Shown here: positions 34,656-38,520 of the stretch, one piece after another
How positions within the stretch are numbered: the stretch's first letter is position 1
How the letters are laid out: each line of letters begins with the position of its first letter
DNA from: Nitrosopumilus sp.
GTDB lineage: Archaea > Thermoproteota > Nitrososphaeria > Nitrososphaerales > Nitrosopumilaceae
Length of the DNA stretch: 64,000 bases
Direction of reading: 5' to 3'
NCBI GenBank assembly: GCA_965218785.1
Contig: OZ244650.1
Span: 604,110 to 668,109, forward strand
Position numbers and translations under genes: made by a program
The notes under the pieces: generated by a model
Told to the model about the DNA's origin: nothing
Databases searched by the model: none
The model's input: the letters and a program-made list of their open reading frames with translations, nothing else

Positions 34656-34824
34656 AATTGATCCATGACTTGTTATATGCTAAATAAATCTAATCCTTAT
34701 TATCGTGTGTATAATTCCATTTTTACACCCATCTGGGGCAGATACTTGGAAAATATCAAAAAATTTGATTTATGGAAAAATCAACGTCAGGGGATGAGGG
34801 GGGATGGGGATAGGTACAGGGCAG

Positions 34825-35180
34825 GAACTGGAGAGAAACAAAAACGTGGTCTCATGGGTTAAAAACGATTATATCGGATTTGTCATAAGATGTCTGTATA
34901 ACGGAATACTGCATATTATTATCCAGATTTTCTGATTCGACTAAAGAACAGTGTAATGCTGGTTCTTGAGATCAAGGGAATTGATGACAATCAGAACAAG
35001 GAAAAGCGCAGATATCAAGAGGGATGGATAGATATGGTAAATGAGGACGGCAGGTATGGCACCTGGATGTTGGGATGCTGCGTTCCATCCAAAAAATTCG
35101 AGGAATAATTGACAAGCACAACAAGACTCAAGTGTCAGCCAACGAATACCAAATGTCTCAAATGTGGTAAGGTGGGGATC
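34825..35180 (+). pseudogene. C-terminal nuclease fragment of a type III restriction (Res) subunit
   Basis: ELERNKNVVSWVKND.IGF, frameshift, then YYPDFLIRL...LVLEIKG...W...VNEDGRYGTW (PD-(D/E)xK). Confidence 0.7.
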
Positions 35181-35809
35181 CAGCTAGAATGAGACCACTT
35201 GCATACATACACTTTTTGAGTTGCGACTGTAAAAACATGCAAAAAATGTTCTTATTTAGAAAGATTCACTCTAATCATTTGTTGGTAAAATAATCCATTT
35301 TATACTTTAAAATTTCAACAAATGATTCAAGATCTTTGATTTCTACAACATTAAACATGAGTCATCTGTTGGAAAATATCCCTATGGTTGTATAATTTTG
35401 GGGATATCTGATGCATCCGATGAATCGTTAATGAATTTTACGTCGTTGGTGGTATCGACAAGCTGTGTTACAGAGGTCAACCCAATGATGTCTCTTCATA
35501 TTTGTGCATTATCACTTTTAGTTCCGCTATAGTATAATCTGTTTTGTACTTATTACCAGTCAATTTCTACCCGATATTATCCAAGTTTTTATATAAATGA
35601 GTTATGCGTAATCGATCCCAGACGGTAACATTCCGAATGTATAACCTGAAATCAACCACATATTGAGATGCTCCACATACAAAATAAAAATTTATACAAA
35701 AATTTCTGATTTTTTACAAGATTTGATGTTTGATGTACAGAATCAAGTACGGCATGTGCAGGTGATACAGAAAAATGATCCATATATTTCTGAATATGTA
35801 GTTTTAGCA

Positions 35810-36745
35810 TTACTTTGTAGATGGTAATACTCTTACATACGCATTGCCGTTGTGATTTTCAATAATCTTCACAATTTTAGTTTGCTGAAACGTGATATTG
35901 GTTGCATGGAATACTGATAATACCAAGTCCTGAAGTCTTTGATCATCTTCCAGATCAATAATTTTTAGTCCTAAATCTTTGCCTGTACTTCTTACTATGT
36001 GCCTGGAATGACTCTTGAAAACACCATGTGATGAGAGTGTCTTTGCTATACTGTGTCCTCTTGATTCTGCATCTGGTTCATTACCGAACATGTATGTTTT
36101 CAGCCAACGTCCCACAAGATCTTCGGATAATTGTATCGCATTACTACATTGTTGGATCAATCCGGGGCTGTATTGACTCAATAATGGTAGCCATGCACCC
36201 ATCTTTTCTGGCTCATTTTTGGAAATCTTTTGAGCTGCTGTAAACTCATCTAGTATTACTTGTGCTGGCGTCATTTTTATTCCAAATTGAGTTGGAAGTA
36301 ATAACTGCGGATCAATTGGACCCAATGATGATTGTTTTCCCATTACCAATTGATTGGATGAGCATGCAAGCATGGTGGCAGCTGACATGGCTGCTTGTGG
36401 TATTATAACCCGTATATCATCAAATTTTTCACGCAGATACAACACAATTGATTCTACTGCCTCGGCAGAACCACCTGGACTGTGTAGTATTAAGTCTAAT
36501 TCTTTGGTCTTCAAACCATACACTGTTTCCATAAATCCCTGTAGATCTTCATTTGTTATTGAAAATACACCGGCAACAGATCCTGCCGAAGGAGATGTCC
36601 AATTGGATGCATACAAGATTGTATTTCTTTTTGTATATTGATTTAATTCGATTAGATATTTGCGGCGTATATTGTCAAAAGGTGGCTTGCCTGTTGTTTT
36701 AATAGATTCCTGAACCTCACTTAATATTTCTCCCCAGCTTGGCAT
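35810..36745 (-). CDS. SDH-family ClpP-fold serine protease (DUF114-like)
   Basis: LDLILHSPGG, AMSAATMLA (Ser), LGPIDPQ (Asp), FKSHSRHI (His). Confidence 0.85.
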   Translation of the reverse strand: MPSWGEILSEVQESIKTTGKPPFDNIRRKYLIELNQYTKRNTILYASNWTSPSAGSVAGVFSITNEDLQGFMETVYGLKTKELDLILHSPGGSAEAVESIVLYLREKFDDIRVIIPQAAMSAATMLACSSNQLVMGKQSSLGPIDPQLLLPTQFGIKMTPAQVILDEFTAAQKISKNEPEKMGAWLPLLSQYSPGLIQQCSNAIQLSEDLVGRWLKTYMFGNEPDAESRGHSIAKTLSSHGVFKSHSRHIVRSTGKDLGLKIIDLEDDQRLQDLVLSVFHATNITFQQTKIVKIIENHNGNAYVRVLPSTK

Positions 36746-36747
36746 TT

Positions 36748-36930
36748 CTAACTAGTGGAATTTGTGGTTATTATTCCTTGATAATTTGTTCTGAAAATGA
36801 TATTATGTTTCTTCATATACTCTTCATATCTTGATTGCAGTTCTAATAATTCATTTATACCTGCATGTTTTTTTGCCTGTTCAAATAGTTCGTCAAAACT
36901 TGGATTTTTATCCTCAATCTCATTTTCCAT
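36748..36930 (-). CDS. Small ORF coupled to the SDH protease
   Basis: 60 aa; stops 2 bp before the protease ATG; ends GIITTNSTS. Confidence 0.6.
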   Translation of the reverse strand: MENEIEDKNPSFDELFEQAKKHAGINELLELQSRYEEYMKKHNIIFRTNYQGIITTNSTS

Positions 36931-38520
36931 ACTAGATAGATGTGTTGTTGGTAAAAAAAGGTTTCAATTCATGATTGATATCGTTATGATTAAAAAAAAT
37001 TAATAGGAATATTGTAGGCGTCCCAATCGCCTCTGTCATCATTACTACAAAGCAGACATGGCGGATTTGGCAAATACCAAAAAGGTGAAGGCAAAATAGC
37101 ATCTAATTATGCAAACGCGGATTTGGCAGTAAAAGCAATGTTGAAATTCGTTGAAAAAAGAGCAAATAGATAAGATAGTTTCCCTTTTAATATTTTTAAA
37201 GCGCACTTTGCAAATCACAGAGTTTGATACTGATTAATTCTTAAAGTAATTCAAAATACCAAACAAACATCTCAAGAATTAGAAAAAAATGCAAAAATCA
37301 GGATCCGATAACTGCCTTACGCCGGAAAGCACCCGAGAATCCTCGTTATGATCCATTACAAAAGACGGAATTCAGTTTTTTAGAGCATGTGAGAAATTCA
37401 ATGCAGATACATGTGTCGTATATTGAGGAATTAAACAGAGCGGGGTCAAATTGCAGTAATCTTGGATGGGGCGCCACAGCATCGTGCAAAAGATGTCAGG
37501 AAATTTTTTTTTTAAGAAAAAAAACCCAAACGTCAAATTAATTATCCTCCAAAATCCCTTCTCTGAATACAGTAGAGTGCTGGCATCAGGCAAAGCGTTT
37601 GCCGGTCTAATATCGTGCGTCAATCTCCAATATGCATTGTTTCCAAATATTTTAGAACGGTGAGATTCTGCCTGGATGCTGAAAATATCTGTGCAGAGTT
37701 TCCGATATTTGCCTCATAAACATTTGATTATCACTATGCCCAAATACAATGCTGACAGGTGACATCAATGCAAAAATTATACATAAAAAAACAATCCTAT
37801 AACACTGCTGTTGGTACCGGTGTAGGTATGGCATACCGTTTATGGAAAAACAAACAAAGTTACAGGAAAAATTTGAAAAAGCGCTGAATGAACATGTGAG
37901 GCACTGCAAATATCCTGCAGTCAAGGAGGATATCGGGGTATTGACAGTTGAATGCCTAAATGGTCTCAGTCACGAATTCCGGAAACTGCCTGGGTCCGAA
38001 TTGCAAAATCAAACCAAATTACAGAGACGCAGCATGGTCAACTGATTGGAAATTTATCCTGCTGAATTTTTATTCGGTGAGGTCTTGATAATGCTCTTTC
38101 AGACATTGGACCAGTTCCTGTATTTTGACCCGTGTTAACTGACGTGACTTGCCCCAAAAAATAAGACCGGTGATCATCATGGGTCTGACTGTCCCTGACT
38201 TGGCTCATTTTTCATATTTATGGGACGATTCAAAATACAGCAAGAAATTTTCAACAGACAGATTTGAATCTGAAGATCCGTATTTATACCTCATGCCTAG
38301 TAGCACGGTAACTTGGATCTTTTTTTGATCGCCTCAAATCCAATCCTTGAAAACACCCTAATTACGTGCAATAAAAACACCATAAATTACCCATATGGTC
38401 AGAGAATACTTTTTAAACTGCATTTATTATCAAAAACACAGGTAAATAAAACATGATAAATATGACGGAGGTGGGGAACACCGTATTGACACTTGGTGGT
38501 AATGACCCATTTGATGCCAT

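Follow-up and report, generated by a model that had tools for sequence, protein, structure and literature searches.

The window analysed here is a stretch of 64,000 nucleotides from a Nitrosopumilus species. Among its ORFs are two adjacent genes on the minus strand, a small ORF and, directly downstream of it, a gene for an SDH-type serine protease with the ClpP fold. The pair occupies a gene-poor stretch of somewhat lower GC content between a plastocyanin-like gene and the gene for a 4311-aa surface protein. The features on which the following account is based are these:

34810..35110 (approx.), plus strand: frameshifted C-terminal remnant of a restriction endonuclease of the type III / BPTD_3080 family, with the rest of the gene missing
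35810..36745, minus strand: gene for the SDH-type ClpP-fold serine protease, 311 aa, starting with ATG
36746..36747, minus strand: 2-nt spacer between the stop of the small ORF and the ATG of the protease gene, read from the sequence
36748..36930, minus strand: gene for the small partner, a 60-aa ORF with the stop codon TAG, its product ending ...IITTNSTS
36950..36961, minus strand: candidate archaeal TATA-like box, CCTTTTTTTACC, from a reading of the sequence
37395..37520 (approx.), plus strand: faint remnant of a DDE_3 (IS630-like) transposase (PF13358, E = 0.04, 14.2 bits, below the cut-off)

The small ORF (36930..36748, minus strand, 60 aa) translates to MENEIEDKNPSFDELFEQAKKHAGINELLELQSRYEEYMKKHNIIFRTNYQGIITTNSTS. 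Its close spacing to the protease gene suggests translational coupling. The candidate TATA-like box has its centre ~26 nt before the start codon of the small ORF; were the box real, the transcript would be leaderless.

The earlier note on this DNA had described a 60-aa ORF ending 2 bp before a protease with Ser, Asp and His motifs, no signal peptide on either product, and a fragment of a restriction gene in a decayed flank. Each of these observations was confirmed. On the minus strand, TAG is followed by two nucleotides and then by ATG. The protease keeps all of the columns that are invariant in an alignment of 26 sequences, its own included. Neither protein has a hydrophobic segment as long as a signal peptide or a membrane helix. 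Finally, the frameshifted remnant at ~34810-35110 (plus strand) gave no Pfam match, and in tblastn its stitched fragment matched plasmid restriction endonuclease genes at 43-45% identity and E ~1e-17. A search for flanking repeats or target-site duplications around the cassette found nothing convincing.

The protease and its small partner

The window protease matches the Pfam family PF01972 (SDH_protease) with 55.8 bits against a cut-off of 31.3 (E = 4.8e-15). Because this alignment covers only residues 79-149, the protease represents a divergent subfamily. Its score against the NCBIfam equivalog NF047768 (Clp_like_SDH), 63.8 bits, is below the curated cut-off of 250 bits; judged by sequence, the window's subfamily is distinct from that of NF047768, of which the E. 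coli lambdoid type is an example. Among the PHROG families, the protease matches phrog_11747, whose function is unknown, at E = 1.2e-90. It fell below the gathering score for the ClpP family PF00574 (13 bits against a cut-off of 20.2, E = 0.094), its match to NfeD1b_N was likewise under the cut-off (E = 0.0021), and neither of the two window proteins matched PADLOC-DB v2.0.0 at E <= 1. Relatives of the protease that are 50-60% identical to it number ~7000 and come from Bacteria and Archaea.

The invariant residues include S89 (in HSPGG), S121 (AAMSAAT), D145 (GPIDPQ), H246/H249 (KSHSRH) and H280, and the order Ser-Asp-His (S121, D145, H246/H249) is preserved in all 26 sequences. S121 stands at the nucleophile position of ClpP-fold enzymes. 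In the AlphaFold model of the window protease (pLDDT 88.7), read together with the alignment, a ClpP-like core spans about residues 40-160 and is followed by a helical C-terminal half that bears the conserved His; no separate sensor domain is visible in either. The best matches in a structure search were ClpP subunits and the stomatin-specific protease 1510-N, at 12-17% identity and target-normalised TM-scores of ~0.5, with rmsd values for 1510-N of 4.3-4.9 A over 190-225 alignment columns. Profile searches found no solved structure for either protein of the pair.

The small partner belongs to a family that can be detected only through protease neighbourhoods and a profile. A word-index search with the 60-aa protein returned a single near-identical sequence. 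A profile built from the alignment of 53 upstream ORFs scores the window's protein at E = 3.1e-14 and matches 833 clusters among 1.84 billion representative proteins. The best 150 of these 833 clusters are 47-128 aa long and thus too short to be fusions with the protease. None of the 53 aligned members had a significant match in Pfam or NCBIfam, and the small proteins of the window and of three prophage or plasmid copies had no match in PHROG.

Members of this family are hydrophilic (median GRAVY -0.63) and share one architecture. A helical part bearing the motif A..QPG[IV].[ED]LM.VYG.Y is followed by a few hydrophobic residues (KVIIS or GIITT, for example) and a Ser/Thr-rich tail. For the window's protein, two helices, the short hydrophobic strand GIITT and the tail motif TTNST-S are predicted. 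The strict tail motif [STA][ST][ND]x[ST] occurs in about half of the loci and the looser [ND]x[ST] in about two thirds, either at the C-terminus or a few residues (up to ~10) short of it. Two other readings of the tail were considered and set aside: a glycosylation sequon (N-x-S/T), as no glycosyltransferase is linked to the pair, and a C-terminal degron, as many members carry extra residues beyond the motif. The protein is predicted to fold as a helical hairpin plus tail. In the structure predicted for a read-through fusion, as given by loci whose two genes share a reading frame, the tail was modelled as a beta-strand with a pLDDT of only ~47-65.

Pairing across homologous loci

To place the pair in a wider context, 80 genome loci with a homologous protease were fetched from more than 20 bacterial and archaeal phyla. 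In every one of them, an ORF of 55-85 aa lies just upstream of the protease on the same strand. The family profile matches directly upstream of the protease in 74 of the 80 loci and nowhere else in their six-frame translations, which argues that the small ORF is not a chance reading frame. The remaining six, all from one Bacteroidota/Ignavibacteriota clade, have a divergent ORF in the same layout, and its products end in sequences such as ...ASNQTSIE or ...SSNHS. The distance from the small ORF's stop to the protease ATG is -1 to 27 nt in 78 of 81 loci, with a median of 13 nt. When all ORFs in the loci were clustered, no third conserved gene appeared; the protease and small-ORF families were the only conserved ones.

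The two proteins also change together. Their pairwise distances are correlated (Mantel r = 0.79, reached in none of 2000 permutations), and the small protein evolves much faster, at a mean identity of 24% versus 58% for the protease. Pairing is universal in the window's protease subfamily, and the two genes are inherited and transferred together. The earlier note had proposed that peptide and protease form a two-gene module, and had named as the test whether a small ORF whose product has a Ser/Thr-rich C-terminus is conserved upstream of such proteases. Such an ORF is present in 80 of 80 loci, and this pairing, the lack of a third gene and the co-evolution of the two families together support the proposal.

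An in-frame stop interrupts the protease gene in two of the 80 loci (L013:5944-6999 and L027:5729-6987). The small ORF is still detected in L013. In L027 both genes are broken and the small ORF has lost its tail; this is a dead cassette.

Transfer, mobile elements and decay

The module is sparse: only 550 relatives were confirmed in 185,579 species, with one genome taken per species. The protease tree intermixes phyla and domains. The window's protease groups with four other Nitrosopumilaceae-type sequences within a mainly bacterial half of the tree, and the Nitrososphaera and Nitrosotenuis copies are placed elsewhere. Horizontal transfer of the pair, across domains included, is rampant. The proteases of a Geoglobus MAG (L020) and an Aquificota MAG (L028) are nearly identical, with tip branches of 0.016 and 0.051; this would reflect either a very recent cross-domain transfer or a binning error.

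The immediate neighbours of the pair are diverse. Some are housekeeping genes: those for aconitase, NADH dehydrogenase, urease, MurJ and tryptophan synthase. Others include restriction-modification methylases (Eco57I/N6), DUF1156, transposases of IS1595 and IS21, an integrase of archaeal type, SieB and RmuC. A 1.79-Mb ENA contig (ctg137344; L082:7815-8945) carries the closest full relative of the cassette, at 70% identity. There the pair sits inside a urease accessory cluster, in opposite orientation, between ureD/ureG and ureF/ureE. Such an insertion shows the two genes entering a housekeeping operon together, as a single mobile unit.

Full-length homologues, at 40-51% identity, are found in temperate phages and on other mobile elements, and upstream of every one lies a small ORF whose product ends in a Ser/Thr-rich stretch. 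In Gordonia phage BeeGee the pair follows the tail genes, and in a Shewanella Mu-like phage it lies between a late regulator and the lysis genes. Five Porphyromonas gingivalis prophages (for example phage027a_F0568, L085:2855-3993) carry it directly after hicA/hicB, between head and neck genes; hicAB and the protease pair there look like a small accessory (moron) cluster within the structural module. In a Klebsiella lambdoid region, the pair lies between replication genes and the Q antiterminator; its small ORF matches the family profile at E = 1.3e-11, and nucleotide BLAST found no match to the pair in E. coli genomes. A P. aeruginosa phage-plasmid has the pair next to its integrase. In addition, the protease occurs on 20 IMG/VR viral contigs, and on 8 of these 20 the partner is detectable by profile. 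A more distant SDH-type protease (33% identity) lies in a lambdoid region of the E. coli plasmid pSM107_MCR (L088:3426-4499), in the rexAB position directly after cI. Here a 56-aa ORF abuts the 3' end of the protease gene, that is, downstream of it; this arrangement of the distant type is found in ~17 of 5426 complete E. coli genomes. The unit also occupies variable islands. Its horizontal mobility and its accessory sites on prophages and plasmids fit a conflict or anti-viral role.

A sister strain offers a view of the cassette in decay. Its locus (L081:7195-8464 against window positions 37737-36461; window positions 35191-36524) has the same flanking genes and an intact small ORF with 3 conservative substitutions; as the two small ORFs show only 4 differences, dN/dS is uninformative. 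Its protease gene is disrupted by several frame breaks and ends after ~95 codons, amid rearrangements. The spacer towards the giant gene is ~4.3 kb longer, and a Hydrolase_3 gene lies in the added DNA. The earlier note had taken the intact state of the pair between decayed flanks to imply selection. The pair is indeed intact in the window and its flanks are decayed. However, the protease of the sister strain is broken, and the argument therefore holds for the window's strain only.

In metagenome run X4, the assembler depth of the protease body reaches only about half of the value for the small ORF and the region upstream of it, and loose ends lie near 36483. The halved depth and loose ends fit the coexistence of intact and broken protease alleles in one sample. 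On this evidence the protease can be dispensed with and is polymorphic, which is usual for genes of defence and addiction. In toxin-antitoxin modules, too, it is often the antitoxin gene that survives longer. The pattern of a lost protease and a kept partner was seen in one lineage only and, by a rough Poisson estimate, would arise by chance with a probability of ~15%.

One contig of run X3 joins position 35145 to 37004, skipping 1858 bases with the whole cassette and having a 36-nt side; in other runs, the sequence is divergent from 35145 onward. The contig may represent an allele without the cassette, or a divergent allele rather than an empty site.

Related systems and a model of the pair

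It is useful to compare the pair with systems already described. The DefenseFinder gene name FS_HP_SDH_sah occurs in one published article (PMC13532340). Like the window pair, this system consists of two genes, for an unnamed small or hypothetical protein and a PF01972 protease, and is found on mobile elements. Unlike it, the window copy is chromosomal and resides in a Nitrosopumilus-type archaeon. The Pfam domain after which the system is named is present in the window protease, and the window pair is probably an archaeal member of the FS_HP_SDH_sah kind. The name stands for a hypothetical protein plus an SDH_sah protease and derives from the work of Fillol-Salom et al. (2022, Cell 185:3248), in which accessory genes of phage-inducible chromosomal islands reportedly protected against phages; the examples tested there were reportedly from enterobacterial satellites. 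The description of the module as uncharacterised in the earlier note thus needs qualifying. Its kind has probably been catalogued, although literature searches found no published mechanism for it.

The resemblance to type II toxin-antitoxin systems is one of layout and behaviour. The genes are adjacent and co-oriented with the small one upstream, here at a 2-nt spacing, and this upstream gene, whose product is small, fast-evolving and mostly acidic, stands in tight coupling with the larger gene that follows it. The pair also behaves as a stand-alone, patchily distributed mobile cassette, and in a decayed copy the small gene outlives its partner. In contrast to such systems, the small protein has no DNA-binding domain recognisable in Pfam or NCBIfam among 53 members, and the putative toxin is a self-contained ClpP-fold protease. 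To our knowledge, ClpP-fold proteases are not an established toxin class.

Two comparisons concern the protease itself. With ClpP it has in common the core fold and a nucleophilic Ser at a helix start, but its triad order is Ser-Asp-His, its His lies in an extra C-terminal helical half, and no Clp ATPase gene is linked. The 1510-N (NfeD) protease (PDB 3BPP, 3VIV, 6M4B) is a ClpP-fold enzyme that likewise lacks an AAA+ partner, and it cuts stomatin, the protein encoded next to it, in the C-terminal region. However, 1510-N is membrane-bound and uses a Ser-Lys dyad, whereas the window protease has the Ser-Asp-His layout and both window proteins are soluble. The partners differ as well, since that of 1510-N is an SPFH-domain protein, while the window protease is paired with a helical protein of 60 aa that gave no match to SPFH.

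Our favoured explanation, to which we assign a probability of roughly 55%, is that the pair is a horizontally mobile two-gene conflict module, serving defence or addiction, in which the small partner inhibits the protease as a pseudo-substrate, most likely one of the FS_HP_SDH_sah kind. Its central element would be a cytoplasmic ClpP-fold serine protease with the Ser-Asp-His layout, co-translated with an obligate small partner encoded just upstream. The small protein would form a helical hairpin; its conserved C-terminal strand, together with the Ser/Thr-(Asn/Asp)-x-Ser/Thr tail, would occupy the substrate groove of the protease as a pseudo-substrate. There the tail would act as a tight inhibitor or as a slowly consumed decoy, so that the protease would be harmless as long as the operon is expressed. 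Should synthesis of the partner stop, or should the partner be displaced, for example upon phage infection, the protease would be freed. It could then degrade cellular or phage proteins and cause growth arrest or an aborted infection.

Several observations argue for such a model. First, the protease carries its presumed catalytic His in its own C-terminal half and has no sensor domain, which makes the small partner the likely regulator. Second, the hydrophobic strand and tail, a segment of the kind that occupies the groove of ClpP-fold enzymes, are the only strongly conserved extended element of the partner. Third, the cleavage by 1510-N of its own operon partner's C-terminal region serves as a precedent. 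Finally, the retention of the small ORF in a sister strain without an intact protease counts for a conflict module. Against such a module count the absence of a PADLOC match, the lack of a DNA-binding domain in the partner, and the many housekeeping neighbours.

A more specific version can be offered tentatively. The pair may be a protease toxin-antidote or abortive-infection switch in which the co-translated 60-aa antidote presents its strand and tail as a consumable pseudo-substrate in the active-site groove. In such a switch, the toxin would set the lifetime of its own antitoxin and would fire once synthesis of the partner stops. The same working would be expected in archaea, in bacteria, and in their phages.

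The polarity of the pair could also be the reverse, with the small protein as a latent effector that is activated when the protease cleaves within its C-terminal tail. Pepco/EACC1 modules set the example: a small protein encoded just upstream of a defence protease has a C-terminal tail that is the cleavage target, and removal of the tail activates it (bioRxiv 10.1101/2025.11.14.688446). The window pair shares the gene order, a small protein encoded immediately upstream of a protease, and several family members have 3-12 residues beyond the Ser/Thr motif, as if these were trimmed off. In other respects the two differ. Pepco is a 117-aa beta-barrel pore former, whereas the window's partner is hydrophilic, lacks any hydrophobic or amphipathic stretch long enough to span a membrane, and is predicted to be helical. 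The Pepco/EACC1 proteases are trypsin- or caspase-like and fused to a sensor; the window protease is neither trypsin- nor caspase-like, has the ClpP fold, and carries no fused sensor domain. A hydrophilic helical partner and a protease without a sensor fit reversed polarity less well than they fit the pseudo-substrate model, and we regard the reversal as unlikely.

Somewhat less likely still is a role outside genetic conflict, in which the small protein would serve a stress-response protease as adaptor or chaperone, or would be its physiological substrate. Many neighbours of the pair are housekeeping genes, and housekeeping ClpP-fold proteases with operon partners do exist, 1510-N and stomatin among them. 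Regulated proteolysis of this kind is hard to reconcile with a pair that is very sparse and patchy, is transferred across domains, and has no conserved genomic context. It also sits poorly with the copies in prophage moron positions, on plasmids, and in decayed mobile islets, and with a protease that is polymorphic in one population.

The small ORF, with its conserved N-terminal helical part and Ser/Thr-rich C-terminus, could in principle encode the leader and core of a RiPP-like precursor peptide, with the protease as leader peptidase. We consider this very improbable, because no modifying enzyme, exporter or immunity gene is conserved near the pair and because the motif that would form the core is conserved rather than hypervariable. 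Least probable of all is a prohead maturation protease with a scaffold remnant from a dead provirus, since the weak matches to head maturation proteases (NF045542, E = 1.9e-7; phrog_53, E = 1.7e-5) are far surpassed by the match at E = 1.2e-90 to a PHROG whose function is unknown. In the 80 loci the pair is not accompanied by genes for capsid, portal or terminase, and in the phage genomes examined it lies either away from the head module or between modules, next to toxin-antitoxin genes.

The module is very widespread, with ~7000 protease relatives and 833 small-protein clusters in more than 20 phyla of both domains, in phages and on plasmids, and yet its small component is missing from Pfam and NCBIfam. 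What is new here is an archaeal copy of a kind that has probably been catalogued already as a defence system. Should it indeed be FS_HP_SDH_sah, our analysis adds four things: the partner family and its conserved tail motif are now defined; the pair is found to be obligate and co-evolving; the system occurs in ammonia-oxidising archaea, where defence systems are little studied; and it gains a concrete model of how it may work. If that model is true, a protease toxin checked by a pseudo-substrate partner would represent a new logic for toxin-antitoxin and abortive-infection systems.
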